Part shown: positions 1-50,028 of the stretch, in pieces
How positions within the stretch are numbered: the first letter of the stretch is position 1
How the letters are laid out: each line of letters begins with the position of its first letter
Assembly (NCBI GenBank): GCA_964604165.1
Contig: CAZRYF010000006.1
Coordinates: 62,317-126,316, forward strand
Direction: 5' to 3'
DNA: 64,000 bases
DNA from: an uncultured Enterobacterales bacterium
GTDB lineage: Bacteria; Myxococcota_A; UBA796; CAJQPC01
Position numbers and translations under genes: made by a program
The notes under the pieces: generated by a model
What the model saw: only the letters and a program-made list of their open reading frames with translations
Told to the model about the DNA's origin: nothing
The model's database searches: none

Positions 1-1274
1 AGCTCGATGCGCTGCTCCCAGGCAACAAATCGGCTGTCGATGCTGTACCGGTGGGCCTTTTGCACCTCGGCAAGGCCAATGGGGTGCCTCTCGGGTTTCT
101 TGAGCTTGATCTCGTAGAAGCGCCGGTAGGCTTCATCCGGCCAAATCTCCACCCGTGCCGTCAGCGCCACAGCCTCCTTGGAGCGCTTTGCGCTGTACTC
201 CAGTGCGTGGGACTCCCCGGGCATCAGGCGGGTATCAAAGCGCTCCACCTTTAAGTTCGGGGTGACATACCGGCCGATGGCATCGGTCTGGGTGGTGCCT
301 TCGATGGCGGATCCGCTGGCATTCAACTGTTCCATCACCAGGGTGACCTGCGGCGTGGAGTAGGTGGGAAACCGATGCCCCGTGCCCGTGTTTTCTACGC
401 GGAGCACGCCCACGAGGACACTGTCTCTCGTGTTGGCCTCCGCGCTGGCCGTGAAGCCGGACTTCACCATGTCCAAGTCATGAACCCCCTTGAAAAGGTG
501 GCGTCCCTCGGGCATGTGGCAGCTCTGGCAGGTGACGCCGTCCGCTGCGTAGTCCGTGCGCCTCCACTCCTCGTAGGTCTCCTGGAGCTTCTTGCTCTCC
601 AGGCCCTCCCCAGTCCGGAAGTCGTGGCATCCATAGCAGAACCGGGAGTCGTTGAACTCGTCCTTGGGCTCGAAGCCGTCGTGGGGTGCGCCAGCGATGG
701 GCTCGCCGTCCTTGGGAGGGCCAAACCTCTCATGGGCCCGCACGTGGCACCCCGCGCAGCTCAAGCCCTTGGCTCGCAGATCCGCATCAAAGTCTGGGTT
801 GGGGACGCCGTCCTCCAGGAAGGGCCACTGCTCCGCCAAGGGGGCATGGCACCGACTGCACTGGCGCGTCTTTTTGTCATTGGATCCGTCCCAGTCGACC
901 ATCTGCCCCAAGACACCTGGACCCATGCCAATGGCATGCCAGCTGTCCTTCCAGTCGGCGTACTGAGTGGGGTGGCAGGCTCCGCATTGCTCCGGATGAA
1001 GCGAGGCGGTGATTTCGGGCCAGTCCTCCGGGGGGGCTCCCTGGGCGGGTACTGGCACATCAAAATGTGCGTCCAGCCATTCGCTTTCTACAAAGGGGGT
1101 CTTCTCCTCGTACTCGGAGAGGGCAGCGGCATGCAGGTTCTTGGCCTCCGCGGGCAAGACCTCCCGCTCTTCCTTCTGATCGAAATTGCCCCAGCGCTTT
1201 GCCCCCACGACAGCAGCAATCACCACCATGAGTACAGCGATCTTCGGGAGAATGGAGTCTTCAGTCTGCGCCAT
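1..1274 (-). CDS. Multihaem c-type cytochrome, N-terminally membrane-anchored (start in window, 3' end runs off the left edge)
   Basis: This ORF is absent from the ORF track because no stop codon lies in the window. The reverse-strand frame from the ATG (complement of 1272-1274) is stop-free to position 1. It reads MAQTEDSILPKIAVLMVVIAAVVG (TM helix) and then carries five CxxCH haem motifs (CGACH, CSRCH, CAGCH, CYGCH, CQSCH). An AAGGTG Shine-Dalgarno-like sequence lies about 5 nt upstream. The listed + ORF 375..1310 is its antisense shadow. Confidence 0.8.
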   Translation of the reverse strand, partial: MAQTEDSILPKIAVLMVVIAAVVGAKRWGNFDQKEEREVLPAEAKNLHAAALSEYEEKTPFVESEWLDAHFDVPVPAQGAPPEDWPEITASLHPEQCGACHPTQYADWKDSWHAIGMGPGVLGQMVDWDGSNDKKTRQCSRCHAPLAEQWPFLEDGVPNPDFDADLRAKGLSCAGCHVRAHERFGPPKDGEPIAGAPHDGFEPKDEFNDSRFCYGCHDFRTGEGLESKKLQETYEEWRRTDYAADGVTCQSCHMPEGRHLFKGVHDLDMVKSGFTASAEANTRDSVLVGVLRVENTGTGHRFPTYSTPQVTLVMEQLNASGSAIEGTTQTDAIGRYVTPNLKVERFDTRLMPGESHALEYSAKRSKEAVALTARVEIWPDEAYRRFYEIKLKKPERHPIGLAEVQKAHRYSIDSRFVAWEQRIE

Positions 1275-1293
1275 ATCAACACCTTTAACGAAA

Positions 1294-1321
1294 GAAGCCC
1301 CCGGTCATGACCGGGGGCTTC
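1294..1321 (-). terminator. GC-rich perfect palindrome between the small peptide gene and the cytochrome gene; intrinsic terminator or attenuator-like hairpin
   Basis: The sequence GAAGCCCCCGGTCATGACCGGGGGCTTC is a perfect 28-nt palindrome with a 12-bp or longer stem. It lies 19 nt after the peptide stop and 19 nt before the cytochrome ATG. On the minus strand it is followed by TTTCGTT. Confidence 0.5.
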
Positions 1322-1340
1322 CATTCTATCGTTCGACTGA

Positions 1341-1538
1341 TCAGCCGCAGGCGTTGCAGGCGTCGCAGGCGTTGCAGGCGTCGCAAGCGTTGCAGGCGTT
1401 GCAAGCATCGCAAGCGTTGCAGGCGTCACATGCGTTGCATGCATCGTCAGCACCGGTGTCGTCGCCCGCGGGGCAGGCGGCGAGGGCCAGTGTAGAGGCA
1501 GCAGCTGCGATCAGGAAAAGGGCTTTGTTGTTGCTCAT
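1341..1538 (-). CDS. Small exported lipoprotein peptide with a (Cys-Asn/Asp-Ala) repeat; 11 Cys at strict 3-residue spacing
   Basis: The 65-aa product begins MSNNKALFLIAAAASTLALAAC, a signal peptide with lipobox L-A-A-C. It continues PAGDDTGADDA and then CNACDACNACDACNACNACDACNACDACNACG. Third codon positions are C-rich, as in the rest of the genome. Repeat copies differ mainly at wobble positions. A purine-rich stretch precedes the ATG. Confidence 0.6.
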   Translation of the reverse strand: MSNNKALFLIAAAASTLALAACPAGDDTGADDACNACDACNACDACNACNACDACNACDACNACG

Positions 1539-1748
1539 GAGTTTTCTCTCTTTCTTCTTGCGGTTTTGGACTCAGCCGGATCCAGCTGAGTCCGGGAATT
1601 CCCGGCCGAAAGTCCGGGAATGGGTTTGGAGTGTCTCCTCCGACCGGGAACCTAAGCTCCTCGTCCGGTTCGTGCCAGTGTAGCAGGGCAACTGGACTTG
1701 TCAATGGTGGGAACCCCCTTGGGGTGACTGGGACGCGGTATTCTTCCT

Positions 1749-3152
1749 ATGCCAATGACTTCTGATGTCGCCCAGCCCTTCCGAATCCCCCTGGCCAGGC
1801 CCATCTTTTGGTGGGTGCTGCTGGCCCAGTGCCTTCTGGGGGGGCTGGTATTCCTGGACTGGCGCCTTCCCCTGGTGGTCCTGTTGGGGGTGCTGGGGTT
1901 GGGGGTCGGCTTGCGTTGGCCCCTTGTGGCGGTGGGGGGGCTGATTGCGGGACGACTTCTGTCCACGGGCTCCATGTCCTGGCTTCGGATTGGCGGGCTG
2001 AACCTGGGGATCTTTGAGCCGCTCTTGGGGTTGGCACTCGTGGTGTGTGTGGGGCACGGCGTGTTGCGGAGGCGCTCCCTGTTTCCTCCCATTCCCTGGC
2101 GTGCGCCGTTGCTGGGCCTGTTTTTCTGGCAAGTGCTTGGTTTGGGGTGGGCCCACCGGCCGGGTGCGGGATTCCAGGAGATTGTGGCCGTTGGCGTCAT
2201 CTTGGTGAGTGCAACCATCATCGTCGTCTTCGTGCGTACCTGGGAAGATTTTCGACGCATGGCCCTGACTTGGGTTGTCGCTTCGGTCGGGGTGGCACTG
2301 ATCAGCGTGACCACGGATTTCGACCAGGTCGCCAGCGCCGGAAAGGTCTGGGAGATCGCAGCACAGGGGGGGCGCGAGACCGGCTTGGGACAGCAGCCGA
2401 ACTGGTTTGCCATGAATCTCATGTTCTCGGTGCTCTTGGCGTTTGCCCTTGCCCTGAACGAGAAGCGATGGGCGTTTCGGCTGTTTCTGGGGGGGTGTGG
2501 TGCAGCGATCTTTTTTGCCCAGTTGCGATCCGGGTCCCGGGGCGGGGCCTATGCAATCGTGATCGGTGGCGTTCTTGTGGCTTGCTCGCGCCCGGTCATA
2601 CGCAGATGGATGCTGCGCTTTGCCATCGTGGGGGTGGTGCTCTTTGGGGTCGGCGTCTTCTTGGGGGAGGACTCCACCCGAAAGGGCTTGATGCGGATTT
2701 GGCTGAACCTGGGCAATCTGTGGCGATCCGATGTGCGGGGGCGCAGCTGGTGGGTCTGCATCGAGATGTTCCAGAATACGTGGGGCATGGGCATTGGGCC
2801 GGGTAGTTTTGCGGTGCTTCTGGAGGAGTATGACTGGAAGCTGTTCAGCTCCATCCACCGGTATCCCCACGGAATCTTCTGGGGCGTGATGGCCCACTAT
2901 GGAGTCGTGGGTCTCTCTTTGGCTGTCTGGGGTGGTGTGGTGGTGTTTCGCATGGGGCGCGGGATCCTTGAGCGCACCCGGGGCACGGACGCCGAGGTTT
3001 TCGCCTGGGTGATGCCCGCCACAGTTGTGGGCTACGTGGCCTGGTCTTTCGTCGAGTTCAATTTCGACGACAAGCCTTTCTGGGAGTACCTGGCCTTGTA
3101 CACGGTGTTGGCTAGGGTTTCCCTGCCCGAAGAGGCAGAGGAGGTAGCGTGA
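1749..3152 (+). CDS. O-antigen ligase / Wzy_C family polytopic membrane protein
   Basis: The 467-aa product has about 10-12 hydrophobic segments. It carries the loop FFAQLRSGSRGGAYAI, typical of O-antigen ligase-like (Wzy_C) proteins. Its stop overlaps the next start (GTGA). Confidence 0.7.
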   Translation: MPMTSDVAQPFRIPLARPIFWWVLLAQCLLGGLVFLDWRLPLVVLLGVLGLGVGLRWPLVAVGGLIAGRLLSTGSMSWLRIGGLNLGIFEPLLGLALVVCVGHGVLRRRSLFPPIPWRAPLLGLFFWQVLGLGWAHRPGAGFQEIVAVGVILVSATIIVVFVRTWEDFRRMALTWVVASVGVALISVTTDFDQVASAGKVWEIAAQGGRETGLGQQPNWFAMNLMFSVLLAFALALNEKRWAFRLFLGGCGAAIFFAQLRSGSRGGAYAIVIGGVLVACSRPVIRRWMLRFAIVGVVLFGVGVFLGEDSTRKGLMRIWLNLGNLWRSDVRGRSWWVCIEMFQNTWGMGIGPGSFAVLLEEYDWKLFSSIHRYPHGIFWGVMAHYGVVGLSLAVWGGVVVFRMGRGILERTRGTDAEVFAWVMPATVVGYVAWSFVEFNFDDKPFWEYLALYTVLARVSLPEEAEEVA

Positions 3153-4216
3153 ATCCAACGGACCTCCTCTTGTGGGGCGTGGCCCTCGTCTTTTTTGGCG
3201 TGGCCTTCTCCTGCACGCTGCCTCGGCCCCCGGCTCTGGACTGGGAGCTCTACTTCAAGGTGGTGCTGGCGACCCTTCTTCGGGGTGAGGTGGAGTCCGA
3301 AGGCGGCAAGGCGGAAGACTGGTACGCCAAAGGGCGAAAGTGGATCTGGTTTCACCCCGCTGCCAGGAATCTGTCCCAGAAGATTGTCAGCCCGGCAGAT
3401 CTCGTGGTTCCCATTCCGGCCTTGGAGGGGGAGCTGGCGCTGGTGGCGGATCTGGCCGGGCTGGAGGGGCCGGCAGCGCGAATCCGACGGATCTTTGGCA
3501 CCGAGGGGCCGGACGATCTTCTCTACGATGACCCGGCCTGGCTGGGGGAAGCCTATGCGCCCTCCCAGCTCTTGGGGGCCGGACTGGACTGGGACCAGGT
3601 GGCCAGTTTTGGGGAGGAGCTTGTGGCCGCGTTGCACCGTCGCAGCGAGAGCGTGCACTGGGCCTTCGCGGGTGCTGCCCCGGCTTTGGAGGAGTCCATG
3701 AGGGCCTATCTGCCTCCCGACAAGGTCCATCACATGGATGGGGGTTCTGTGGAGGCCTTGGGGGAGAGGCTGGAGTCCGTGGTCCCCGGACGTTCGGATC
3801 GGCTGGTGGTGGTGGTGAGCGGTGAGGAAGCGCTGAAGACTACCCAGGCCATGCATGCTCGACCGGTTCTGCGGGACCGTGTTCTTGGTGTTGTGGGGGT
3901 CGGCGCCAAGCTGGGTGGGGACGGCAGCGCCTGGTTGGCCCAGTTCTTTGACCACGTGTCCATGGACACGGAGGTGGCACGGGCCACCTGTTGGTTTCAC
4001 CTGGCCTTTCTCGCGACCGAACTGGCCCCGCCAGGGGATGTGGCGTGTCCTCTGTCTGGAACCGCGTGGCCTGATCCACCGGTGCCCCAAAGCGGACGGG
4101 CTTCCATTGAAACTGTGGATCTTGGGGTCTTGCCGGGACCGGCGGGGGAGTACCCGGCGGCTCTCCTGGGAAGGGCGCTCCTGGTGACGGTGACGGCCCG
4201 TCTTGGCACCGGTTAG
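3149..4216 (+). CDS. Hypothetical protein with a single N-terminal TM helix
   Basis: The 355-aa ORF is coupled to the upstream gene by a 4-nt overlap. The N-terminus LLLWGVALVFFGVAF is hydrophobic. I recognised no motif. Confidence 0.5.
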   Translation: MNPTDLLLWGVALVFFGVAFSCTLPRPPALDWELYFKVVLATLLRGEVESEGGKAEDWYAKGRKWIWFHPAARNLSQKIVSPADLVVPIPALEGELALVADLAGLEGPAARIRRIFGTEGPDDLLYDDPAWLGEAYAPSQLLGAGLDWDQVASFGEELVAALHRRSESVHWAFAGAAPALEESMRAYLPPDKVHHMDGGSVEALGERLESVVPGRSDRLVVVVSGEEALKTTQAMHARPVLRDRVLGVVGVGAKLGGDGSAWLAQFFDHVSMDTEVARATCWFHLAFLATELAPPGDVACPLSGTAWPDPPVPQSGRASIETVDLGVLPGPAGEYPAALLGRALLVTVTARLGTG

Positions 4217-4236: not shown

Positions 4237-5082
4237 ATGCAATACGCCCTGCTTTGGATTCCGGCCCTGGTTGCTTGTGATGGCGGAGGGGTTGCCACCG
4301 ACCCTTCCCGCGTGATTGTGGAGATTACCTCCCCATCCGAGGGGGACCTCTTCCTGGAGGGGGAGGTCGTGTCACTGGAGGCAGACCTCACTGACCTGGA
4401 CGGAAACCCGGTGGAAGTGGATGGGGTCTCCTGGGAGATCTTCGGGGGGGACTGGAGCGCAGAGGGCAACCCGCTGGAGGTCACGGATCTCCCGGTCGGT
4501 GCCCTCGATTTGCAGGTTGTGGCGGACGTGGGAGGTAAGCCCGTGCGGGATACCGTGGGCATCCACGTTGCCTCGAACGATCCAGAGTCCGAGTGTGACG
4601 ATGGCCTGGACGATGATGGCGACGGTCTCGTGGACTGTGCCGATGAAGACTGCACAGGCGTGGTGGAGTGCACCTGGCCTGCCTCTCTCGCCCACACGGC
4701 GAGCATCGCCTACGAGGCCAGCTGGCAAGCCGAACTGGCGGGGTATTCCAGCTGTGCCGTGGCGTTCAACGGCACCCTGGACCGGGTACGGGATGACGGG
4801 GTGTGCGGCAATTGTGATCGCACCTTCGAGGGGGCCGTCACCTACACGGACACCTCCTGTGCCGAGACGCCGGGCGATCTTCCCACCACCATTCGGTACG
4901 GCATCATCTTTGCTTCCGAGAACGCCTGGACCCTCTGGTCCTCGGACGGCACTTCCTGGGGTGAATCGGGCACGGCAACCGGGGGGGCCGGAACCTACAC
5001 CCTCTCCCGCAGCGACCCCATCGAGGTGGATGGCAACGACGCGGGAGACCTCAACACCATCCTTTCTTTCACCGAGCTGTAG
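4237..5082 (+). CDS. Lipoprotein with a MopE-like Cys/Asp-rich putative metal-binding motif
   Basis: The signal with lipobox is MQYALLWIPALVAC. The motif CDDGLDDDGDGLVDCADEDC matches the myxobacterial putative metal-binding (MopE-like) repeat. Confidence 0.65.
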   Translation: MQYALLWIPALVACDGGGVATDPSRVIVEITSPSEGDLFLEGEVVSLEADLTDLDGNPVEVDGVSWEIFGGDWSAEGNPLEVTDLPVGALDLQVVADVGGKPVRDTVGIHVASNDPESECDDGLDDDGDGLVDCADEDCTGVVECTWPASLAHTASIAYEASWQAELAGYSSCAVAFNGTLDRVRDDGVCGNCDRTFEGAVTYTDTSCAETPGDLPTTIRYGIIFASENAWTLWSSDGTSWGESGTATGGAGTYTLSRSDPIEVDGNDAGDLNTILSFTEL

Positions 5083-5093
5083 ACCTGCTGGAC

Positions 5094-5600
5094 TTGCTGC
5101 TGGGGTTTGGCCGCGCTGGGCTGTTTGGCTTTGGCGGAGGCCCGGGGATGATTCCACTGCTTCAGGTGGAGTGCGTGGAGAAGGGCGGCTGGATCACGGA
5201 GAGTGAGTTTCTCGAGGTGCTGGCCATGAGCGCTGCCCTCCCGGGACCCCTGGCCCTCAAGGTGGCCGCCTTCGTGGGCCACAAGGAGGCGGGCATTGGG
5301 GGGGCCCTCGCGGCGCTGTTGGGGGTGGGGGCGCCAGCCCTGGTGCTCATGACCTTGTTGGCGAGCCTCTTCTTTCGGTACCGGTCCCACTCCGCCATGG
5401 AGGGCGCCCTGGGAGCGGTGCGCCCGGTGGTGGTGGGCATGCTGGCCTGGGTCGCGATCTCCCTGGTGCCCACAGGCATCACCTCCTGGGTGGGGGGTGC
5501 GATTGCGCTCACTGCCCTCGGAGCGCTTGCTCTTGGCGTGCACCCGGCTGTCGTCGTGGCGACCGCGCTGGGGGGAGGAGCCGTCTTTTTCAGGGGATAG
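5094..5600 (+). CDS. Chromate transporter (ChrA) family protein, short single-domain form
   Basis: GLFGFGGGPGMIPLL...ESEFLEVLAMSAALPGPLA is the ChrA-family signature. The true start may be an upstream CTG near 5085. Confidence 0.7.
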   Translation: MLLGFGRAGLFGFGGGPGMIPLLQVECVEKGGWITESEFLEVLAMSAALPGPLALKVAAFVGHKEAGIGGALAALLGVGAPALVLMTLLASLFFRYRSHSAMEGALGAVRPVVVGMLAWVAISLVPTGITSWVGGAIALTALGALALGVHPAVVVATALGGGAVFFRG

Positions 5601-7668
5601 GGGAAGGTACTGTCACCGAGAGTCCCTGTCGTACTGAGGCCTCGGAGATCTCCAACTCCAGCGGCTCGGCCCCCTCGATCTTCAAGAACGCCCGCTCCCG
5701 GCTCTGGATCTGGTCCGTGTCGCGGGTCCAAAGAGGGACCTGGAGGGTCCAACGGCCGGTTCCATCCGCCAAGACCTCCGCTCGCCAGGAGCGCCACTGG
5801 CCCATCCAGGAGATCGGCAGCAGGAACTCGACCCGGGCCCCGGGCGGTGCAGATCCCTGCAGGTTGGCTCCGGGAACCCGCTCGTACACCCACACCCCTG
5901 GAAGCTCGGTGGACACCATGCCATCCGGGTCGGGGGAGGCGTACACGGGTTTTAGGCCTGGAACTGCGGGAAGGCCCCCCCCGGCGCTGCCACCGAACAA
6001 GAGCCTCCCCAGGGGGCCGGGAACATCGTCCAGCTCGTCCGCGGAGACCAACAGGAAGCGATACCGGCCCTCATCGAGCAGGTCCAGCAGGTTCTCCACG
6101 GTGCCTGACCACATGGCTTCTGTGGCCCGGTACCGGGGAATGCCGCCTGCATAGGTTCCGAAATGTCCAATGGCGGAAGGGCGCTCTCCGAGAACGTTGA
6201 TCCAGTGCCCATGGCGCCAGGTCCCCAAGACGCCCCACTCCGGTGCGGTCTCATCCACCGGGTCTGTGGTGGCCAGCCACCGGTAGGCATCAAAGACCCA
6301 GGGAGACCGGTTTTCTCGGGCTTTGGGTGCCCACCAGGCCGCGTGGGCCTCGGCAGGACTTCGCAGAAAAAGGGCCACCGCACACAGCGGTGCCCAAGGG
6401 GTGATCCGGGCGAGGGAGGCTCCGATCACCACCCCCATCATCGGGGCCAGGGTCCACCCGAATCGGTTTTGGACCATCACGAGGGCCAGGCAACCGGCGG
6501 TGCCCCAGAGAAGAAGACGGGTGGGAGGGGAAGGCGCTGTGCGGGCCAGGTGGAACCCGCACACGGGAAGCAGCACGACCCCGAACCCAAGCAGGCGCAG
6601 GGAGCGCAGTCCTCCCTCCCGAACCCCCCCTTCCCACATGGGCTGCATTTCCGTCACCGTGGCGAGCCACGGATCGCCACGGGTCAGCCAGTCATCCAGC
6701 CCGGTTCTCGCCGCGTTGGCCAAGGCCATCGCCCCGACAAGAAGGACCAGGCCAATGCCCGCCTGGCGCTTCCAATCCGTCCCGGAGCGCCATGAGAGAA
6801 GCCAGCCCCCCCCCGCGGTCGCTCCCACCACCGCCAGGGGATGGAACAGGGAAAGGCGTGCATAGTCCAGAGGCTCTCCTGCCTGGAGGCCGGTGGCGGT
6901 CGCCACGGGCATGGCGAGGACGGCCCCAAGAGCGATCCCCGTGAGGCCGGTGCGGCCTGCATCTGTGGGACGAGGCAGCTGCGTGAGGGTCAGGGCCGCG
7001 GCCGCCAGGACTGCATAGAGAAAGCCCCCTACCCAGACCAGGCAGGCCCCCGCAGTCCAGAGGGCCACCCGGCGCCGACAGGGCCGCTTCGCCGCCAGGG
7101 CCAGGAGCAGGCCCGCCAGAAAGAGCCCCTCTGCCCCGCTGTGATCCGGCCGGCCCCACTGGGTGGCCGCCACATGTTGTGGGGCCAGGGCCGTCAGCAG
7201 CCCGGCGGCCAGGGCAGCCCTCTCCCCGAAGACGCGACGGGTTCCCCACAGCACCGTGGCCACCGTGAGCACGCCAATGACCAACGGAAAAAGCGCCAGC
7301 CCCACCTGAAAGCCCAGGCCCTCGGTTCCAAACCCACCCAGAATCCAGGCAAAGAGCGCCAACGCAGCATCCCAGCCTGGGGACCAGGGAAAGGGGGCGC
7401 CCTCGGGAAAGCCCAAGAACGGATCGTGCAGGGGAGGCCAGGGGAATCCCTCCACCCACGCAAGGGCGCGCCGCGTGTGCATGGCGGCATCCGCGTCCAC
7501 CGGGACCAGGTGGCCGTCGTGGAAATGGCTGCCAGGAGCGGACAGCCGCACCGCTGTTGCCAGCCCCAGCACGCCCGCTGCACCCACCGGCCAAGGAATA
7601 CCTGGGGTAGAGTCCGGGGTCTCCAGCATGTCTCGCGTCATCGACGATCCCCTGCTCTCCGTCGTCAT
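5590..7668 (-). CDS. AglB/STT3-like oligosaccharyltransferase-family membrane protein (GT-C) with a degenerate WWDxG motif
   Basis: The product is up to 692 aa. An N-terminal loop carries D-x-D (VPVDADAAMHTRR), and more than 10 TM segments follow. TWRHGHWINVLGERPSAIGHFGTY aligns by eye with the STT3 motif WWDYGYxI...R....T. The C-terminal soluble domain (VWVYERVPGANLQG...VSEASVRQGLSVTV) resembles the archaeal AglB tail. Alternative starts are at 7641 and 7629. Confidence 0.55.
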   Translation of the reverse strand: MTTESRGSSMTRDMLETPDSTPGIPWPVGAAGVLGLATAVRLSAPGSHFHDGHLVPVDADAAMHTRRALAWVEGFPWPPLHDPFLGFPEGAPFPWSPGWDAALALFAWILGGFGTEGLGFQVGLALFPLVIGVLTVATVLWGTRRVFGERAALAAGLLTALAPQHVAATQWGRPDHSGAEGLFLAGLLLALAAKRPCRRRVALWTAGACLVWVGGFLYAVLAAAALTLTQLPRPTDAGRTGLTGIALGAVLAMPVATATGLQAGEPLDYARLSLFHPLAVVGATAGGGWLLSWRSGTDWKRQAGIGLVLLVGAMALANAARTGLDDWLTRGDPWLATVTEMQPMWEGGVREGGLRSLRLLGFGVVLLPVCGFHLARTAPSPPTRLLLWGTAGCLALVMVQNRFGWTLAPMMGVVIGASLARITPWAPLCAVALFLRSPAEAHAAWWAPKARENRSPWVFDAYRWLATTDPVDETAPEWGVLGTWRHGHWINVLGERPSAIGHFGTYAGGIPRYRATEAMWSGTVENLLDLLDEGRYRFLLVSADELDDVPGPLGRLLFGGSAGGGLPAVPGLKPVYASPDPDGMVSTELPGVWVYERVPGANLQGSAPPGARVEFLLPISWMGQWRSWRAEVLADGTGRWTLQVPLWTRDTDQIQSRERAFLKIEGAEPLELEISEASVRQGLSVTVPSPIP

Positions 7669-10105: not shown

Positions 10106-11044
10106 GTGATTCCCATGCGTATCTCGGTGAACCAACTTCTCGTTCCCTTCCGCTCCCGCCGCGTGCAGGCGGGTCTGGGCGTGGTGACTCTGGTGTCTGC
10201 CTTGTCTGGAATTGCCCTCGGGACTGGGGTGGGCAAGCTCCTGGCGCTGCCGGAAGACGTGGTGGTGGAGGAAATCGATTCCAAGAACGAAGAGAAGGAC
10301 GCGGAACCTGCAGGCCCCCGCCGGAACTCGGCTGCCCAAGCCCGCTCCAAGGAGTTCTACAACCGACCCATCCTGGAACGAAATCTCTTCGACCCGGATG
10401 CGGTGGCCGTCGTGGCAAGTGTCGACACGGAAGACGGTCGACCCACGGATCTGGACGTGGTGCTGCTGGCGACGGTGGTGGCCTCTCCGGCAGACTCAAG
10501 CTCGGCGCTCATTGTGGAGGGCAAACGGGGGGCCCGGGCCCGGGGCTATGGCATTGGGTACTCGCTGCTGGGCGAGGGAGTCATTCACAGCATTGAGAAG
10601 AAGCGGGTCGTGATCCTCCGGAACAGTGGAGAGATCGAGTACCTGGATATGTCCGAGGACAAGGCCAAGCCCAAGGGGAGATCTGCCAAGGGGGGCGGGG
10701 ATGGAGAGGTCCAGCGGGATGGAGACAACTTCACCGTGGAGCGCTCACTTCTGGATGAAGCCATGGAGAACATGGACAAGCTCGCCACACAGGTGCGGGT
10801 GGTGCCACACAAAGGGGCGGGGGGAGAGGTCGATGGCTACCGGTTGTCCGCCATCCGTCGAGGCACGCTGTTTGACAAGTTGGGAATCAAGAACGGGGAC
10901 ATCGTCCACAACGTGAACGGCCAGTCGCTCATGAGCACCTCGGATGCCATGAACGCCTACCAGGGCCTCCAGAACGAGTCGTCCTTCACCTTTGAAATCA
11001 CGCGTCGAAACAAGAAGAAGACGCTGAGCTACCAGGTTCGCTAG
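10106..11044 (+). CDS. gspC: Type II secretion system protein C (TM anchor plus C-terminal PDZ domain)
   Basis: It is the first gene of the gsp operon. It has an N-terminal TM helix (GLGVVTLVSALSGIALG) and a C-terminal PDZ-like segment (GYRLSAIRRGTLFDKLGIKNGDIVHNVNGQ). An alternative ATG at 10115 has an AAGGGG SD. Confidence 0.75.
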   Translation: MIPMRISVNQLLVPFRSRRVQAGLGVVTLVSALSGIALGTGVGKLLALPEDVVVEEIDSKNEEKDAEPAGPRRNSAAQARSKEFYNRPILERNLFDPDAVAVVASVDTEDGRPTDLDVVLLATVVASPADSSSALIVEGKRGARARGYGIGYSLLGEGVIHSIEKKRVVILRNSGEIEYLDMSEDKAKPKGRSAKGGGDGEVQRDGDNFTVERSLLDEAMENMDKLATQVRVVPHKGAGGEVDGYRLSAIRRGTLFDKLGIKNGDIVHNVNGQSLMSTSDAMNAYQGLQNESSFTFEITRRNKKKTLSYQVR

Positions 11045-11054
11045 GGGAAATGCT

Positions 11055-13760
11055 GTGATCAAAATCCAAAAATGGCTGCTGAAGACATCGGTGGTTCTTG
11101 CTGCACTGGTGGTGTTCCAACCCCCGTTGGCAGCCCAGGAAGACGACGACAGGCCGATGATTGGCGGACCTGCAGGCAAGCTGCCGCTGATGCCTGGACT
11201 TGGGCCGGGGGGAGCTCTTCCTCGGCCGTCCCTGAAACCCACGGCCTCTCGATCTGGAGAGGATGAGGGCGGCCCGGGAGCTGGGAATGGCGCCAAGCCC
11301 TCTGCCGGCCGTGAAGACAAGCCTTCTGGACCCGCGCCCCAATCTTCCAGCAGCCCCTCTTCCAGCAGTTCCTCCTCTTCATCTCCCAGCGCCCCCCCCC
11401 GTCCTGCGAACCAGAGCCGCCCCCCCAAGCTGGCCCCCAACTCCAAGGTGACTCTGGACTTTGTCAACACCCCCTTGCAGGACCTGGTGAAGTTCATGGC
11501 CGAGATCACCGGTCGAAACTTCATTCTTACGGACGATCTCAAGGGGGAGATCACCATCATCTCCCACCAGATGGTCTCTCCGGCGGAAGCCTACGAGGCA
11601 TTCCTTTCGGCGTTGGCGGTCAAGGGCTACACAACGGTCACCGTGGGAAAGATCACCAAGGTGATCAAGGACCGGGAAGCCACCTCACATCCGCTGCGGG
11701 TGTACGAGGGGGACACGATCCCCTACATCGACAACTTTGTCACCCAGATCTTCCAGTTTGAGAACACGACGGTCAGTGACATCTCAAGCGTGGTGAAGCA
11801 GCTCTCGGGATCGGCCGCCAACATCATCGCCTACCAGCCCACCAACACGCTGATCGTGACCGACTCGGCCGTGAACATTCGCCGCATGTGGAAGGTGGTG
11901 AGTCAGCTGGATGTGGCAGCGCCCAAGTCGACCCTGCAGGTGGTGCCAGTGCACTACGCAATGGCGGCAGAAATCGCTCGTCTGATCACCGAATTGTACG
12001 GCGTGGAAGGGGAGAACAAGAAGAGCAGTTCGAGCTCCCGGAAGTCGAGTTCGGCCAAGGATCGAAAGCGCCGGCGCCGGGGAGGGGACAAGGACTCGGG
12101 AGGTTCCGCCACCACCACTTCGGTGGGAGAGGGGCGCTATATTTCCAAGATTCTTGCGGATGAGCGCACGAACTCCCTGATCATTCAGGCCAATGAGACC
12201 GCCATGGCGGACATTCTCTCCCTGATCGGGGAGCTGGATGTGGATGTGGACCCCTCTTCTCGCTCGCAGATCCACGTGGTCTACCTGGAGCACGCCAAGG
12301 CCCAGGACGTGGCTCAGGTGCTCACAAACCTCGCCCAGGAGTCCCAGAGCAATCGGAACAGTCGAAACAACAACCGGCGGCAGCCTTCCAGCCGAAACCA
12401 GAACAGTCGAAACAACCGGGGCCGGCCGGAACGAGACCAGGGACCGGCTGCGGACAAGACCAGTCCCACGGCGGTCTTTGAGGATGGCGTCAAGGTGACC
12501 GCCGATGAGAACACCAACTCCCTGGTCATCGTGGCCAGCCCGGAGAGCTTCTCGATTCTGCGCCAGGTCATCAACCAGCTGGACATTCGCCGCAAGCAGG
12601 TCTTCGTGGAGGCGGTGATTATGGAGATCGCCTCGGACGATGACCTGAACCTGGGGCTTGGGATGCACATGGGGCTCCCCGGCGACTCGGGAACGGCTTT
12701 TAGCTTTGGCTCCGCCCAGTTGAACGGAAACAGTGTGGGGCTGGACTTGCAGAGCGTGCTGTCCGGCATGGCGATGGGGGTCTTTGGGGACTCCATTGAC
12801 GTCACATTGAGCGATGGCACCAGCTTGCCCATTCCCGCCTTTGGCGTGGCGCTGAATGCGCTCCAGGCGAACTCCATGGTGAACATTCTCTCCACCCCGA
12901 ACATCCTCACCATGGACAACGAGGAGGCCAAGATTGTGGTGGGGCGGAACATTCCCTTCCCCATTTCATCGGGCATGGACTCCAACGGGAACCAGCTCAT
13001 CTCCTACCAGCGCGAGGATGTGGCCATCACCTTGAAGGTCACGCCCCAGATCAACGAGTCGGACTTTGTCACTTTGGAGATCTTCCAGGAGGTCTCGGAG
13101 ATCGAGGAGGACTCCAGCGGACTCGACGTCAACTCGGCCGGCTTCATTACCTCGAAGCGTTCCGCAGAGACCACGGTGTTGGTCAAGGACAACCAGACGG
13201 TCGTGATCGGGGGCCTCATGGGCCAAACGGAGACCGAGGTGGAGACCAAGATTCCGCTTCTCGGGGATCTTCCCCTTGTGGGGGCCCTCTTCCGGGGCCG
13301 CCGCAAGAGTGCTCGCAAGACGAATCTGCTCATCGTGATGACACCCCATGTCATCGACGAGCCTGAAGACCTGGAAGAGGTCTACCGGATCAAGGTGGCC
13401 CAGCGGGAGGAGTTCTTGCGACGGTTCTATGGAAAGACCACTCAGGAGCAGGCCGTGGAGCTCAACGGTCTCTTGCGCTACAGCATGAACCTGGTCAACG
13501 AGCCCAGTGTCTACCGGACACGCATTCAGGAGCCCGCGCCGGAGGCTGCTCCCGAAGGGGAGTCGACGGGTGAGGAGGGCCCCTCGGGGGACTCCGCGGC
13601 ACCTGTGTCTCCGGAGGACTCCGACAGCGCGGCGTACCAGGAGGAGACTCTCCCGCGGGAAAACGCGACAGCAGCCCTGACGGACGAAGACATTCGCATG
13701 CTTCTGGGGGGCGGGCTGGAGTCCGCCTATCTCCAGGGCGAGAAGGAGGCCGGACGGTGA
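11055..13760 (+). CDS. gspD: Type II secretion system secretin GspD
   Basis: The 901-aa product has a signal peptide. The secretin C-domain reads VLVKDNQTVVIGGLM...IPLLGDLPLVGALFRGRRK...LLIVMTPHVI. Low-complexity Ser/Pro and Arg/Asn/Ser insertions are present. Confidence 0.9.
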   Translation: MIKIQKWLLKTSVVLAALVVFQPPLAAQEDDDRPMIGGPAGKLPLMPGLGPGGALPRPSLKPTASRSGEDEGGPGAGNGAKPSAGREDKPSGPAPQSSSSPSSSSSSSSSPSAPPRPANQSRPPKLAPNSKVTLDFVNTPLQDLVKFMAEITGRNFILTDDLKGEITIISHQMVSPAEAYEAFLSALAVKGYTTVTVGKITKVIKDREATSHPLRVYEGDTIPYIDNFVTQIFQFENTTVSDISSVVKQLSGSAANIIAYQPTNTLIVTDSAVNIRRMWKVVSQLDVAAPKSTLQVVPVHYAMAAEIARLITELYGVEGENKKSSSSSRKSSSAKDRKRRRRGGDKDSGGSATTTSVGEGRYISKILADERTNSLIIQANETAMADILSLIGELDVDVDPSSRSQIHVVYLEHAKAQDVAQVLTNLAQESQSNRNSRNNNRRQPSSRNQNSRNNRGRPERDQGPAADKTSPTAVFEDGVKVTADENTNSLVIVASPESFSILRQVINQLDIRRKQVFVEAVIMEIASDDDLNLGLGMHMGLPGDSGTAFSFGSAQLNGNSVGLDLQSVLSGMAMGVFGDSIDVTLSDGTSLPIPAFGVALNALQANSMVNILSTPNILTMDNEEAKIVVGRNIPFPISSGMDSNGNQLISYQREDVAITLKVTPQINESDFVTLEIFQEVSEIEEDSSGLDVNSAGFITSKRSAETTVLVKDNQTVVIGGLMGQTETEVETKIPLLGDLPLVGALFRGRRKSARKTNLLIVMTPHVIDEPEDLEEVYRIKVAQREEFLRRFYGKTTQEQAVELNGLLRYSMNLVNEPSVYRTRIQEPAPEAAPEGESTGEEGPSGDSAAPVSPEDSDSAAYQEETLPRENATAALTDEDIRMLLGGGLESAYLQGEKEAGR

Positions 13761-15466
13761 GCGCTGGCTTCTTTGCCCTGGAGCAGAGCCTTCTGCAGGA
13801 AGGGGTGCAGGCCTCCGACCTGGAGGATGCTCGGCAACATGCGGATCGCACGGGCTTGAGTCTGCTGGAGGTCATCCAGCGCACAGACTCCGTGGACCCG
13901 GCGCTGCTGCACAAAGTGCTGGCAGGCCTGACGGGGCTGGAAGTGCTGGAGGACGTGGATCTGGAGCAGGTCGATGTGGAGCTGGTGCGCCAGCTTCCCC
14001 TTGGGTTGGCCCGGGAGCAGGGAGTGCTTCCCTTGTGGGAGAAGAACGGCCGGGTGCTCGTGGCCATGGGCAGCCCCGAGGCGCTGAGCGCCACGGATGA
14101 TCTGCGGGTGCTCTTTTCATTGCCGGTCTCACCCGTTCTGGTGCGCCACGACACCCTCCGGGACATCATCAACAAGGCTTTTGACAAGGCGTCTCGCACC
14201 GCCAGCGCGGTGATGGAAGAAATCCAGGAGGAGGAAGAGGACGACCTGACAGGCGGCTTGGATCTCGAAGCCGACATCCTGGACGATCCAAACCAGGCCC
14301 CGATCATTCGGTTCGTAAACACGTTGCTGACCCAGGCCATCAAGGACAGGGCCTCGGACATCCACATCGAGCCCTTCGAAAAGGAGCTGGTGGTTCGGTT
14401 CCGCATTGATGGGGTCCTCTACGAAGTGGTCAAGCCTCCTCCGCGGCTTCAGGCCTCCATCGTGTCCCGCGTGAAGATCATGGCGGGCCTGAACATCGCC
14501 GAGAAACGTGTTCCCCAGGACGGGCGAATTCGCATTCGAATGGCGGGCCGGGAGATCGACCTGCGGGTGTCCACACTGCCGGTGCGGCACGGGGAGCGCG
14601 TGGTCATGCGTATCCTGGAAAAGGGAGCGGTCTTCAGTCTGGATTCCACGGGCATGGAGCCTGCCGAATTGGAGGACTTCCGAAAGCACATTCGGCGGCC
14701 CCACGGAATCCTTCTGGTGACCGGACCTACGGGGTCCGGAAAGACCACCACGCTCTACTCGGCCCTCTCGGAGATCAACAAGCCCGACTTGAACATCCTC
14801 ACCATCGAGGATCCCATCGAGTACGAGCTCAAGGGCATCGGCCAGACCCAGGTCAACCCCAAGATCAAGCTCACCTTTGCCTCCGCCCTGCGGGCACACC
14901 TGCGTCAGGACCCAGACATCATCATGGTGGGAGAGATTCGAGACAAGGAGACCGCGGACAACGCGGTCCAGGCGGCCCTGACCGGTCACCTCGTCTTTTC
15001 CACTCTGCACACCAACGATGCTGCAGGTGCTTTCTCCCGACTTGTGGACATGGGGGTGGAGCCGTTCCTGGTGGCCTCTTCCCTGGTGGCGGTGCTTGCC
15101 CAGAGGTTGGTGCGACAGCTCTGTAGCGAGTGCAAGGAGGCCTACGAGCCATCCGCGGTGCAGCTCAAGGATGTGGGACTGACCAAGAAGGACCTCAAGG
15201 GGAAGGTCTACCGGCCCAAGGGGTGCCCCGAATGCCTGGACACGGGCTACCGGGGGCGATCGGGCATCTACGAGCTGCTTCATGTGACCGACGACGTGAA
15301 ACACCTGGTGATGCAATCCGCCGATGCAGGCTCCATCAAGAAGGCGGCTCTCGCAAATGGCCTGGTGACCCTGCGCCGGGATGGCCTCCGCAAGGTTTTG
15401 GACGGGGTCACCTCCTTTGACGAAGTGGTGCGCGTCACCCAGGAAGAGGTCGCCGACAAGGGCTGA
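13757..15466 (+). CDS. gspE: Type II secretion ATPase GspE
   Basis: The Walker A motif is GPTGSGKTTT. Asp and His boxes are present, as is the tetracysteine motif CSEC...CPEC. The start is in a GTGA overlap with gspD. Confidence 0.95.
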   Translation: MSAGFFALEQSLLQEGVQASDLEDARQHADRTGLSLLEVIQRTDSVDPALLHKVLAGLTGLEVLEDVDLEQVDVELVRQLPLGLAREQGVLPLWEKNGRVLVAMGSPEALSATDDLRVLFSLPVSPVLVRHDTLRDIINKAFDKASRTASAVMEEIQEEEEDDLTGGLDLEADILDDPNQAPIIRFVNTLLTQAIKDRASDIHIEPFEKELVVRFRIDGVLYEVVKPPPRLQASIVSRVKIMAGLNIAEKRVPQDGRIRIRMAGREIDLRVSTLPVRHGERVVMRILEKGAVFSLDSTGMEPAELEDFRKHIRRPHGILLVTGPTGSGKTTTLYSALSEINKPDLNILTIEDPIEYELKGIGQTQVNPKIKLTFASALRAHLRQDPDIIMVGEIRDKETADNAVQAALTGHLVFSTLHTNDAAGAFSRLVDMGVEPFLVASSLVAVLAQRLVRQLCSECKEAYEPSAVQLKDVGLTKKDLKGKVYRPKGCPECLDTGYRGRSGIYELLHVTDDVKHLVMQSADAGSIKKAALANGLVTLRRDGLRKVLDGVTSFDEVVRVTQEEVADKG

Positions 15467-15470
15467 ATTC

Positions 15471-16724: not shown

Positions 16725-16738
16725 CCCAGGAGTCCTCG

Positions 16739-17161
16739 ATGTTCTGCCTTTCCTCCCGCAACCGAAACCGCCGCGCTCGCGCCCGGCGAGGCATGACCCT
16801 CATGGAGATCATGGTCGTGATCGCCATCCTCGGCACCATCATGACCGTGGTGGCCGTAAACGTGCTCGAAGTCTTCGGTGAGTCCAACGTGGAAAACACC
16901 AAGATCCAGATGGCGAACATGGACAACATGCTCACCATTCACCGGGCCACCCACAAGAACAAGTACCCGGCCAGCCTGGACGAGGTGAAGGCCAAGTTCA
17001 AGAATGGAGAGGTACCCACGGACGCCTGGGGCGGGAACTTCGAGTACTCCTGTACGGATGACTGCCGGGGCTACAAGATGGTGTCCCTTGGGGAGGACGG
17101 CAAGTCGGGTGGCTCCGACAAGTCTGCCGATATCGTCTCCAATTCTGGGAAGTTCCAGTAG
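16739..17161 (+). CDS. gspG: Major pseudopilin GspG
   Basis: The prepilin-type N-terminus is RRG|MTLMEIMVVIAILG. The GspG body contains DAWGGNFEY and SLGEDGKSGG. Confidence 0.9.
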   Translation: MFCLSSRNRNRRARARRGMTLMEIMVVIAILGTIMTVVAVNVLEVFGESNVENTKIQMANMDNMLTIHRATHKNKYPASLDEVKAKFKNGEVPTDAWGGNFEYSCTDDCRGYKMVSLGEDGKSGGSDKSADIVSNSGKFQ

Positions 17162-17164
17162 GAA

Positions 17165-19223: not shown

Positions 19224-19239
19224 CTGCAAGAAAAATACC

Positions 19240-20448: not shown

Positions 20449-20458
20449 GGAGAAGAAA

Positions 20459-48505: not shown

Positions 48506-48540
48506 GCCGGGAGCCTATCAGGCGAGATCATCTGCGCCTA

Positions 48541-50010: not shown

Positions 50011-50028
50011 AGTGAGACTCCGGGTTGA

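Follow-up and report, generated by a model that had tools for sequence, protein, structure and literature searches.

The peptide gene and its surroundings

The window, by which we mean the whole 64-kb stretch of DNA analysed here, carries on its minus strand a 65-residue ORF at 1341-1538, whose translation is exactly that given in an earlier note on this DNA. The ORF lies 66 nt (and not 67 nt, as the earlier note had it) upstream of the gene for a pentahaem cytochrome. The features of the locus are as follows.

1..1274, minus strand: c-type cytochrome with five haems, an N-terminal membrane anchor and, at the C-terminus, an Ig-like domain (five CxxCH motifs)
1290..1326, minus strand: perfect 13-bp GC-rich hairpin, then CUUCUUUCGUU, between the peptide and cytochrome genes (fold)
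1341-1343, minus strand: stop codon of the peptide gene
1344..1439, minus strand: repeat (C-N/D-A)x10-C-G, equal to 11 [N/D]-A-C motifs (translation and Tandem Repeats Finder)
1440..1472, minus strand: acidic linker PAGDDTGADDA, codons 23-33 (read from the translation)
1473..1538, minus strand: signal peptide with lipobox (MSNNKALFLIAAAASTLALAA, then C), codons 1-22 (read directly from the translation)
1539..1670, minus strand: 5′ leader of ~130 nt with several hairpins (conserved blocks in an alignment of four orthologous loci)
1677..1704, minus strand: sigma-70-type promoter, TTGACA-16 nt-TACACT with a TG extension (promoter scan, 10/12 match)
1749..3152, plus strand: divergent gene for a Wzy_C (O-antigen-ligase-like) polytopic membrane protein (Pfam Wzy_C, 8e-5)
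3149..4216, plus strand: 355-aa protein, part of a conserved Myxococcota block (tblastn: L009, L011-L014, L016, L026)

The product is laid out as MSNNKALFLIAAAASTLALAAC / PAGDDTGADDA / (C-N/D-A)x10-C-G, with 11 cysteines in the repeat in addition to the lipobox Cys. Read against the pattern of a lipoprotein (SPII) signal, namely a positive n-region, a hydrophobic h-region and a lipobox of the form [LVI][ASTVI][GAS]-C, the N-terminus divides into MSNNK / ALFLIAAAASTLA / LAA-C. Tandem Repeats Finder reports a 9-nt unit at 1347-1439 in 10.3 copies, with 79% matches and no indels, and the codons used within the repeat are TGC (ten times) and TGT (once), GCC/GCT/GCA (6/3/1), AAC (six times) and GAC/GAT (3/1). 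The earlier note had remarked that third codon positions resemble those of the genome's other genes, which agrees with a GC3 of 0.74 against 0.72-0.82 in neighbouring genes. The repeat unit is better read as [N/D]-A-C, present 11 times, and we take the true unit across the wider family described below to be N-[P/A]-C. A 9-nt DNA repeat of such a type is not special in itself and is common in metagenomes; the peptide is significant because its context is conserved, and not because of the repeat alone.

The first 424 of the 426 codons of the cytochrome gene fall inside the window, the remainder lying to its left. Pfam matches were obtained to MtrC-II/IV, Cytochrome_C7 and C554. The best Foldseek match for an AF2 model of the protein (pLDDT 81.6, haems absent from the model) was 5ZE8, the pentahaem c552 of Thermochromatium tepidum (E 6.6e-13, probability 1.00), with 420 aligned columns, TM 0.54/0.59 and 18% identity, and a profile of the cytochrome matched PDB entries 5ze8 at 5e-15 and MccSep 9wt8 at 5e-10, these two being its closest relatives of solved structure. 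The only invariant cysteines of the cytochrome family are the 10 in CxxCH motifs: the loop at the position of MccSep Sec/Cys325 reads G-H-R-F-P-T-Y-S-T-P, with neither Cys nor Sec, and the region of MccSep C239 aligns with L-Q-E-T. As judged from the model, the cytochrome shares the fold of T. tepidum c552 and MccSep and is without the catalytic Cys and Sec of MccSep.

In all Myxococcota loci the peptide-cytochrome pair is flanked by the Wzy_C-like gene and a gene for a 564-aa GT-C-like membrane protein (weak PMT_2). The Wzy_C-like gene is conserved beside the peptide in L001, L009-L013, L016 and L026, and also in L216 (43% identity), a locus reached from the peptide alone. A PDB sequence search with the 564-aa protein returned no match, and the 355-aa protein matched nothing in Pfam, NCBIfam or the PDB. 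Elsewhere in the window lie a chromate-transporter-family gene 3.5 kb from the peptide, an STT3/AglB-like oligosaccharyltransferase gene at 5590-7668 that is conserved only in the closest relatives, and, some 47 kb from the peptide at 48.5-50.8 kb, the sole radical SAM gene found in the window, of the B12-binding kind and beside a carbamoyltransferase gene. Genes for sulfur oxidation or sulfur reduction did not turn up in the 64-kb window, thiol-redox genes of the Redoxin/thioredoxin/CcdA kind are absent from the neighbourhood, and the Myxococcota loci have neither a SoxA-like haem protein nor a YeeE-type transporter.

Conservation of the peptide gene

The exact peptide is present on 13 metagenome contigs, and orthologues were found directly upstream of cytochromes that are 88, 74, 68, 55, 55, 51 and 42% identical to that of the window. 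Synonymous and non-synonymous codon differences between orthologues stand at 10:4, 16:1 and 12:5, and comparison of the repeat between orthologues gave 21/21 identical in the coding frame against 11-16/20 in the other five frames. The number of repeat units varies from 4 to 10, in-frame every time and with the Cys period kept. Out-of-frame changes of the repeat and conservation of the plus-strand frames, both named in the earlier note as findings that would speak against the gene, were not seen, and its contention that selection acts on the peptide frame, rather than on the DNA repeat or the plus-strand frames, is borne out. The lipobox (L/V/F-A/T/S-A-C) is retained in L009, L010, L011, L013, L014, L016, L117, L126, L135, L175 and P0122, the forms seen in at least ten orthologues being LAAC, FTAC, VAAC, LSAC, LIAC and LLAC, and the linkers of the orthologues are acidic (D/E/G/S/T) and of variable length.

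The flanking signals are conserved as well. SD-like sequences precede the ATG in 7/7 orthologues; in the window, a purine-rich ribosome-binding stretch (~1542-1559, minus strand) lies inside the 5′ leader, whose fold reaches -52.6 kcal/mol (z = -2.7). The promoter scan found one site against 0.1 expected, and L009, L010 and L011 share its two hexamers as well as the TGC that precedes the -10. A search of 1200-1800 against Rfam gave no family at threshold and only sub-threshold chance matches. The hairpin after the stop codon (-28.1 kcal/mol, z = -5.5) has equivalents with different stem sequences in L009, L011, L013, L014 and L016 (-29 to -45 kcal/mol, z -3.4 to -7.3), and would be terminator-like or mRNA-stabilising. 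Neither this hairpin nor the conserved promoter and leader had been seen in the earlier note.

We consider ORF 1341-1538 (minus strand) to be a genuine, conserved gene because its orthologues lie beside cytochromes, differ mostly at synonymous positions and conserve a single frame, and because promoter, ribosome-binding site and hairpin are conserved; the proposal that it encodes a real exported lipoprotein stands, with lipobox, frame and orthologue context all conserved. The contrary reading, in which the ORF arises by chance from a 9-nt tandem repeat or is a Cys-codon leader peptide attenuating the cytochrome operon, could draw on the abundance of matching 9-nt repeats in metagenomes and on the terminator-like hairpin directly after the ORF, and we put its probability close to nil. 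It is already contradicted by the comparative data, since signal peptide, lipobox, SD sequence and frame are conserved and substitutions are mainly synonymous; the leader or attenuator version in particular was rejected, as long NPC proteins exist and relatives of 100-300 aa with haem domains cannot be leader peptides. The best explanation of the product is a peptide predicted to be Sec/SPII-exported, lipid-anchored and intrinsically disordered, bearing 11 independent [N/D]-A-C thiol motifs.

N-[P/A]-C repeat proteins beside pentahaem cytochromes

Secreted N-P-C repeat proteins occur near the cytochrome homologue in 32 of the 80 genomes that carry it, a locus being scored as positive when the cytochrome locus held an ORF with at least three [ND][PA]C motifs. 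The N-P-C ORF lies no more than 250 bp from the cytochrome gene in 25 of these 32 loci (binomial P 1e-23). With synteny to multihaem cytochromes found in related genomes, and extending down to 42% cytochrome identity, the tie to the downstream five-haem cytochrome suggested in the earlier note holds. No NPC protein was found within the flank in about 45 of the 80 cytochrome loci, and no convincing P-C motif protein of another kind came to light when the 48 “negative” loci were searched. When the test was reversed, the cytochrome was present in five of the six lipoprotein-type (CNA)n loci obtained from a DNA-pattern scan, as it was at P0122, found by phmmer alone, and was not found within 10 kb of one (CNA)n locus (L096/L159). 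NPC peptides picked without reference to the cytochrome likewise adjoin it or its usual partners. The scan itself, run on metagenomes with the pattern (TGY-RAY-GCN)4, returned at least 120 stretches, mostly unrelated simple repeats and many on low-GC contigs, with about eight genuine loci among the stretches listed.

The family takes the form of small peptides or of NPC tails flanking a SoxA/TsdA-like mono-haem domain, the latter in 19 loci, and relatives that combine a folded haem domain with the motif are 100-300 aa long. A protein may have as few as 1-2 motifs (Entotheonella L019/L020, L026) or upwards of 30 (L029), set apart by 0 to about 20 residues, and NAC and NPC are mixed inside single proteins in L048, L029 and L071. 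The majority are Lys-rich (NPCAAK) and not acidic. The peptides end in C-G, C-G-G or C-G-A, and their genes may stand in tandem (three in L126, two in L175). The strict 3-residue Cys period of the window peptide would be one extreme of this beads-on-a-string family. As read from the sequences, the peptide is a zero-spacer lipoprotein variant of a widespread, unnamed N-[P/A]-C repeat class whose members are putatively periplasmic and are genetic partners of a c552/MccSep-type cytochrome; the Myxococcota N-A-C peptides are grouped with the N-P-C proteins by motif and synteny instead of by alignable homology.

Searches of Pfam and NCBIfam with the peptide and its NPC relatives gave nothing meaningful, and the literature on the peptide motifs, NPC repeats and DUF6969 yielded nothing relevant except the repeat of Clostridioides difficile CdeC. 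A word-indexed homology search with the peptide produced one match only and an exhaustive phmmer search of 1.84 billion representatives three, among which P0123 was rejected as an unrelated giant protein with C-D/E-x linkers. No Pfam or NCBIfam model and no paper was found for the family, in keeping with the earlier view that no described family covers the peptide. Annotators should be aware that very short, low-complexity genes of this kind often go uncalled: an exact-sequence look-up showed eight of nine peptides to be absent from the protein collection, the ninth being named “hypothetical protein”, and in the Myxococcota MAG locus L011 no gene had been called at the position of the peptide.

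Recurrent neighbours of the system are YeeE/YedE-type sulfur or selenium transporters (6-9 loci), FGE-like proteins, DUF6969 and thioredoxin/CcdA. FGE-sulfatase-like domains stand beside the system in eight loci. In L029 the domain is part of the cytochrome polypeptide, and in another case it is joined to a membrane protein encoded close to the L159 peptides; the one FGE-like protein inspected has no obvious CxxxxC catalytic pair. Genes for AhpC/Redoxin, AhpD-like CMD, thioredoxin and DsbD_TM/CcdA directly adjoin NPC peptides in L212, L214 and L215, and the L214 peptide also adjoins a CzcCBA-type efflux system and an NrsF/ECF sigma pair.

Possible functions and comparison with known systems

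We tentatively favour a role for the peptide as a flexible chain, tethered to the membrane, of carrier thiols that probably bear sulfane sulfur and are serviced by the cytochrome; both the carrier role and the sulfur chemistry are read from context. The peptide would be made in excess of the enzyme, because the hairpin sits between the two genes, and would be tethered at the membrane beside the membrane-anchored cytochrome. Its thiols may serve as carriers or substrates whose most likely load is sulfane sulfur (as persulfide or polysulfide), if not another chalcogen adduct, and the haem chain would oxidise or reduce them, the peptide giving in trans the reactive Cys that MccSep has in cis (C239/U325), much as the SoxY Cys serves SoxAX. 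The neighbours favour sulfur/selenium chemistry and thiol redox over metal storage, and the conservation of Asn/Asp two residues before each Cys and of Pro/Ala directly before it suggests that every Cys is recognised singly. Against this carrier model stand the 64-kb window, in which no genes of sulfur oxidation or reduction were found, the Myxococcota loci, whose conserved neighbours are Wzy_C-like and GT-C-like instead of a SoxA-like haem protein and a YeeE-type transporter, the grouping of N-A-C with N-P-C by motif and synteny, the roughly 45 of 80 cytochrome loci with no NPC protein, the L096/L159 peptides with no cytochrome within 10 kb, and the fact that the closest structural relative, T. 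tepidum c552, is itself of no known function. The broader proposal that N-[P/A]-C proteins are new, widespread disordered poly-Cys carriers, which would shuttle sulfane sulfur or selenium and supply in trans the thiol that c552-type enzymes lack, is a rather doubtful possibility.

The extreme Cys density with its overlapping CxxC, the acidic linker, the chromate-transporter-family gene and the CzcCBA-type efflux beside L214 would also suit a periplasmic metallothionein-like binder that chelates Cu(I), Zn, Cd, Hg, As(III) or similar, with the cytochrome redox-active on the bound metal. We think this unlikely: a fixed metal or Fe-S site is disfavoured because motif number (1-2 to >30) and spacing (0 to about 20) vary freely and leave no fixed chelating geometry, most members are Lys-rich, Asn/Asp at -2 and Pro/Ala at -1 are conserved, the recurrent partners concern haem, thiol redox and sulfur transport rather than metal transporters or chaperones, and no metallothionein model in Pfam or NCBIfam was matched. 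An Fe-S cluster peptide was rejected, both for the variable spacing and for Sec export, which gives an unfolded, cofactor-free chain. Of the thiolate-rich metal-, Fe-S- or redox-active peptide envisaged in the earlier note, thiol redox is favoured by the neighbours and a defined metal or Fe-S site is not. A sacrificial or recyclable thiol redox buffer, re-reduced via the cytochrome or a CcdA/thioredoxin pathway, would fit the AhpC/Redoxin, CMD, thioredoxin and CcdA genes beside the L212, L214 and L215 peptides and the abundance of peptide that the post-gene hairpin implies. It is distinctly unlikely, as such genes are absent near the window peptide and double as standard helpers of cytochrome c maturation, and as the SoxA-like haem fusion, the YeeE-type transporters and the FGE-like partners are left unexplained; moreover, it overlaps the carrier model rather than excluding it.

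The FGE-like domains of eight loci, one of them fused to the cytochrome (L029), raise the idea of a modification substrate, in which Cys (or Asn/Asp) is converted, for example to formylglycine by an FGE-like oxidase or into thioether cross-links. Tandem peptide genes, as in L126 and L175, and a hairpin behind the precursor gene are reminiscent of RiPP operons, and the C-x3-D/N spacing is akin to the Cys-Asp thioether motifs of ranthipeptides. We nevertheless regard it as quite improbable, given a Sec signal and lipobox in place of a RiPP leader, the absence, from the ~47 kb of the window nearest the peptide, of radical SAM, cyclase and FGE-like genes, the FGE-like protein without an obvious CxxxxC pair, and the occurrence of NPC repeats as tails on a folded haem protein. 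A RiPP precursor had been thought unlikely in the earlier note too, and this stands; the absence of a maturase, offered there in support, is correct for the neighbours, and a radical SAM gene does exist ~47 kb off. An envelope or glycosylation role, as a disulfide-cross-linking surface lipoprotein or as a glycan acceptor (N-X-C sequon) for the Wzy_C-like, GT-C-like and STT3-like enzymes, finds encouragement in the zero-spacer 6x NPC of the self-assembling exosporium protein CdeC (PMC7677010), in the STT3/AglB-like gene at 5590-7668 and in the Wzy_C-like and GT-C-like genes that flank every Myxococcota pair, including L216 at 42-43% identity. It is highly improbable, however, as the cross-phylum partner is the cytochrome and not glycosylation genes, and the STT3-like gene is kept only in the closest relatives. 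Furthermore, four of the ten repeat units have Asp for Asn, and Pro at the X position, as in NPC, precludes N-glycosylation.

Should the carrier model be true, at least 154 clusters of small NPC peptides that are now “hypothetical”, spread over Proteobacteria, Nitrospinota, Methylomirabilota/Rokubacteria, Entotheonella and Myxococcota, would become interpretable as thiol-carrying partners of a widespread pentahaem cytochrome family. On the broader proposal, orphan c552 cytochromes would gain a function, and a second carrier principle would stand alongside SoxYZ. The carrier model would bear on periplasmic sulfur or selenium handling, including that of sulfur oxidisers and of marine and groundwater lineages, and the peptide-cytochrome pair, to which the SoxA-like haem protein may be added, would make it testable by biochemistry.

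Among known systems, MccSep (ExtKL) is a pentahaem selenoprotein polysulfide reductase of Geobacter sulfurreducens (PDB 9wt8; bioRxiv 10.1101/2025.11.18.688581), whose cluster also encodes the rhodanese-family lipoprotein ExtH (PMC6148476). It shares with the window cytochrome five CxxCH motifs, a C-terminal Ig-like domain, a periplasmic location and a Cys-bearing lipoprotein encoded alongside. In contrast to MccSep, the window cytochrome is without the haem-2-ligating C239 and the Sec/Cys325 of the D-G-U-P loop, scores 33 bits against a cut-off of 250 with the NCBIfam model for MccSep, and is accompanied by a disordered poly-Cys peptide rather than a folded rhodanese. The best structural and sequence match, T. 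tepidum c552 (5ZE8), has an equal haem count and an Ig-like domain but only 18% identity, and is of unknown function (bioRxiv 10.1101/2023.11.21.568154). CdeC, a self-assembling, Cys-rich exosporium protein of C. difficile with 6x Asn-Pro-Cys (PMC7677010), has in its zero-spacer N-P-C the same period-3 Cys as the (CNP)n of L029 and the (CNA)n of the window; the likeness is at motif level only, CdeC being a 405-aa Gram-positive spore-surface protein without a signal peptide/lipobox context or cytochrome partner.

Metallothioneins and Cys-rich RiPP precursors (sactipeptide, ranthipeptide) resemble the peptide in small size and dense, short periodic Cys motifs, but the peptide is a Sec-exported lipoprotein with no adjacent maturase, no match to a Pfam or NCBIfam model and, across its family, no fixed spacing. 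CXXX-repeat peptides are likewise small and very Cys-rich, with short periodic motifs. In SoxY, the C-terminus GGCGG lies on a flexible arm, and its Cys is handled by the c-type haem enzyme SoxAX. The peptide is unrelated to SoxY in sequence or fold, carries many Cys instead of one and has no SoxZ, and there is no SoxA-like gene at the window locus; it is low-complexity, matches no NCBIfam or Pfam model of such a carrier, and resembles SoxY only in its C-G(-G) end. The SoxA-like haem domain of the relatives scores 24.6 with the NCBIfam SoxA model against a cut-off of 110. What the peptide would share with SoxYZ/SoxAX, and with TsdA and its His/Cys-ligated haem, is the concept of a flexible C-terminal Cys served by a c-type haem enzyme, and it is to a haem domain of the SoxA/TsdA type that NPC repeats are fused in the 19 related loci.

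The small lipoprotein gene

Comparison of orthologous loci indicates that the 65-aa ORF is a real gene. Translation reproduces exactly the signal, acidic linker and cysteine repeat described in the earlier note, and the five-haem cytochrome placed there downstream indeed comes next on the minus strand, with five CxxCH motifs, across a gap of 66 nt rather than 67 nt.

1341-1538, minus strand: peptide; lipoprotein signal MSNNKALFLIAAAASTLALAA followed by C, then linker PAGDDTGADDA, then (C-N/D-A)x10-C-G
1-1274, minus strand: pentahaem c-type cytochrome, start at 1274

The repeat (1347-1439; 9-nt unit, 10.3 copies, 79% matches and no indels by Tandem Repeats Finder) varies between copies at third positions or by the AAC/GAC switch, much as had been claimed, and GC3 of the ORF is 0.74 against 0.72-0.82 in neighbouring genes. 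The identical peptide was found on 13 metagenome contigs, which also supply the flank outside the window. Beyond the peptide gene, the compared locus L001 encodes, in this order, the 426-aa cytochrome, a polytopic membrane protein of 564 aa (weak PMT_2/GT-C match), a MOSC-domain protein and a 574-aa protein. Starting from 774 cytochrome homologues (E <= 1e-5), we found that every close Myxococcota-type locus has, immediately upstream of the cytochrome gene and in the same orientation, a gene for an orthologous small lipoprotein; a strain variant of the peptide (P0001) has 8 units.

Orthologous loci: cytochrome identity and peptide repeat units
L009: 88%; 9 units
L010: 74%; 9 units
L011/L012 (Myxococcota MAG): 68%; 9 units
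L013: 55%; 7 units, all CNA
L014: 55%; 4 units
L016: 51%; 7 units
L015: partial

Over an ungapped 54-codon stretch, synonymous to non-synonymous codon differences between orthologues were 10:4, 16:1 and 12:5, with codon position 3 taking the overwhelming share. Conservation favouring the plus-strand frames, which the earlier note had said would refute its reading, was not found: between orthologues the coding frame of the repeat region is identical at 21/21 positions and the other five frames at only 11-16/20. An SD-like purine run precedes the ATG in all orthologues, and the four closest loci have in common a TTGACA-16-TGCTACACT promoter and a ~130-nt leader. Promoter and leader together occupy window 1539-1704 (minus strand). 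The structured 5' leader, which matches no Rfam family, contains blocks conserved even between loci with no more than 68-88% cytochrome identity, and may be a regulatory RNA element. Folding of six loci showed, in every one, a perfect GC hairpin of at least 13 bp 3' of the stop codon (-28 to -45 kcal/mol; z -3.4 to -7.3), its stem sequences diverging among more distant loci. On these orthologue, codon, frame, SD, promoter and hairpin data, none of the conditions that the note had named as refuting its own reading does so. We consider it extremely improbable that there is no gene, or a leader peptide only.

The peptide gene was uncalled in the deposited Myxococcota MAG locus L011 (5469-6001; GCA_036337845.1), and exact look-up in a collection of 15 billion proteins failed to find eight of nine such peptides; these genes are thus systematically under-annotated.

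A family of N-[P/A]-C repeat proteins

Judged by its motif, the window repeat lies at one end of a broad family built on the unit N-[P/A]-C. Motif number and spacing vary freely across this family, but N/D is retained at -2 and P/A at -1.

Forms of the repeat
NPCAAK-type repeats in small secreted proteins: Accumulibacter, Azoarcus, Motiliproteus, Nitrospinota, Rokubacteria, other Myxococcota
Zero-spacer (CNP)n: Arenicellales (L029)
HNPC repeats: a gammaproteobacterium (L024)
Two NPC motifs only: Entotheonella (L019/L020)
Single G-N-A-C: L026

NAC and NPC are mixed inside single proteins at three loci (L048, L029, L071). Motif and synteny are the basis for equating the N-A-C lipoproteins with the N-P-C proteins, as such low-complexity sequences are not alignable as homologues. 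On some metagenome contigs, tandem paralogous (CNA)n lipoprotein genes occur in two or three copies (L126 3-840; L175 2001-2588; L096/L159), some of which have lost the last cysteine (for example ...CNAANADGA and ...CNAEG). A cysteine period of three also occurs, in an unrelated setting, in P0123, a giant repetitive protein (1841 aa) with (C-D/E-x)n linkers between Ig-like repeats, such as GCDKCDKCDECKGGDECDECDECDGCDG.

A scan for Cys-repeat ORFs in the best 80 genome loci with a cytochrome homologue found an ORF with at least three N-[P/A]-C motifs in 32, and in 25 of these it is at most 250 bp from the cytochrome gene (P ~1e-23, assuming that such ORFs fall uniformly over the flanks); about 45 of the 80 had no NPC-type partner in the ~5 kb of flank examined. 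Gene order indicates that the linkage also holds in reverse: among the listed metagenome DNA-pattern matches, five of six contigs with a genuine lipoprotein-type (CNA)n carry the cytochrome, and the sixth (L096/L159) has nearby a membrane protein with a fused FGE-like domain. P0122, retrieved solely by phmmer with the peptide as query, is flanked by a Wzy_C-like gene (43% identity) and, on the other side, a cytochrome homologue (42%). An Accumulibacter query gave at least 154 clusters of NPC peptides, all named "hypothetical protein" at source, which adjoin the cytochrome or its usual partners. Neither the N-[P/A]-C repeat proteins nor their link to this pentahaem cytochrome family is described in Pfam, NCBIfam, source annotations or searchable papers, although literature beyond these may differ.

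Neighbouring genes

Neighbours were counted by tblastn across loci, with Pfam and NCBIfam.

Recurrent neighbours
Mono-haem SoxA/TsdA-like domain, NPC repeats on both sides: 19 loci
DUF6969: 10 loci
FGE-sulfatase-like domains: 8 loci, with a cytochrome fusion in L029
YeeE/YedE-type transporters: 6-9 loci
Thioredoxin, CcdA, AhpD-like and Redoxin genes: beside NPC peptides

The best NCBIfam models for the transporters are YedE/FdhT (selenium) and TsuA (thiosulfate). At L212 (8877-9353) and L213 (5229-5687) the transporter adjoins a ~150-aa conserved secreted protein (motif ...Y.YSCPLN.TPDY...) with no Pfam family. In the L029 fusion (4851-6917; Arenicellales chromosome OZ244198.1) the FGE-sulfatase-like domain is C-terminal (Pfam 1e-43; nearest NCBIfam models PvdO, SenA and EgtB), with two (CNP)n proteins upstream and a DUF6969 gene downstream. 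Myxococcota have a different conserved block, in which the genes for a Wzy_C-like protein and an uncharacterised 355-aa protein are divergent from those for the peptide, the cytochrome and the 564-aa GT-C-like protein.

Other genes in the window
4237-5082, plus strand: 281-aa protein with "acidic double-disulfide repeat" (NCBIfam NF033662, 2e-8, below cut-off)
5590-7668, minus strand: 692-aa STT3/AglB-like oligosaccharyltransferase (NCBIfam TIGR04154, E 5e-37, below curated cut-off)
10106-22090, plus strand: type II secretion cluster, ~12 kb (secretin, GspE, GspF, pseudopilins, GspK, GspL/PilM-like)
32.5-34.8 kb: Moco biosynthesis genes MoeA and MoCF
46817-50847, minus strand: B12-binding radical SAM protein (768 aa) beside a carbamoyltransferase (562 aa)

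No sulfur genes were seen elsewhere in the 64-kb window. The oligosaccharyltransferase gene, on what is a bacterial contig of Myxococcota-like type and set among GT2, GT4, DegT-type aminotransferase and Wzy_C-like genes, may mark a protein N-glycosylation locus; it is kept only in the closest relatives, as is the 281-aa protein, which has a weak bacterial Ig domain. The radical SAM gene, ~47 kb away, is probably unrelated to the peptide.

Possible function and comparison with known systems

The export and lipid anchoring of the peptide, the free variation in motif number and spacing, the tight cytochrome linkage and the hairpin, which should raise the peptide transcript above that of the cytochrome, together lead us to favour, tentatively, a reading from context in which each N-[P/A]-C motif would be an independently recognised reactive thiol and the peptide would serve the membrane-anchored pentahaem cytochrome as a multivalent carrier or substrate, its load most plausibly sulfane sulfur or a related chalcogen adduct.

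Binding of a metal or metalloid by the peptide is unlikely, and a periplasmic thiol redox buffer, to be set beside the thioredoxin-type neighbours, a little more so. Lower again we place a substrate for modification by the FGE-like proteins or by other enzymes. A part in the envelope or in glycosylation, together with the neighbours specific to Myxococcota, has a structural precedent in the 6x NPC repeat of C. difficile CdeC (PMC7677010), and is to our mind the most doubtful of these four.

The AF2 model of the cytochrome (pLDDT 81.6) has one good solved match, Thermochromatium tepidum pentahaem c552 (5ZE8, E 6.6e-13), the function of which is not known (bioRxiv 10.1101/2023.11.21.568154), and the family profile also matches MccSep (9wt8, E 5e-10), a periplasmic pentahaem selenoenzyme of Geobacter sulfurreducens that reduces polysulfide at a C239-ligated haem and carries Sec325 on an Ig-like-domain loop (bioRxiv 10.1101/2025.11.18.688581); its gene cluster includes ExtH, a rhodanese-family lipoprotein (PMC6148476). 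The only invariant cysteines of the cytochrome family are ten, all within CxxCH. The cytochrome is not a MccSep, since the Sec-loop position reads G-H-R-F-P-T-Y-S-T-P and the C239 region lacks Cys; it scores 33 bits with NCBIfam ExtKL, against a cut-off of 250. The proposed carrier would resemble the SoxY cysteine served by SoxAX, and the in-cis selenol/thiol chemistry of MccSep, with a cytochrome of the c552/MccSep fold that is without the reactive Cys and Sec of MccSep.
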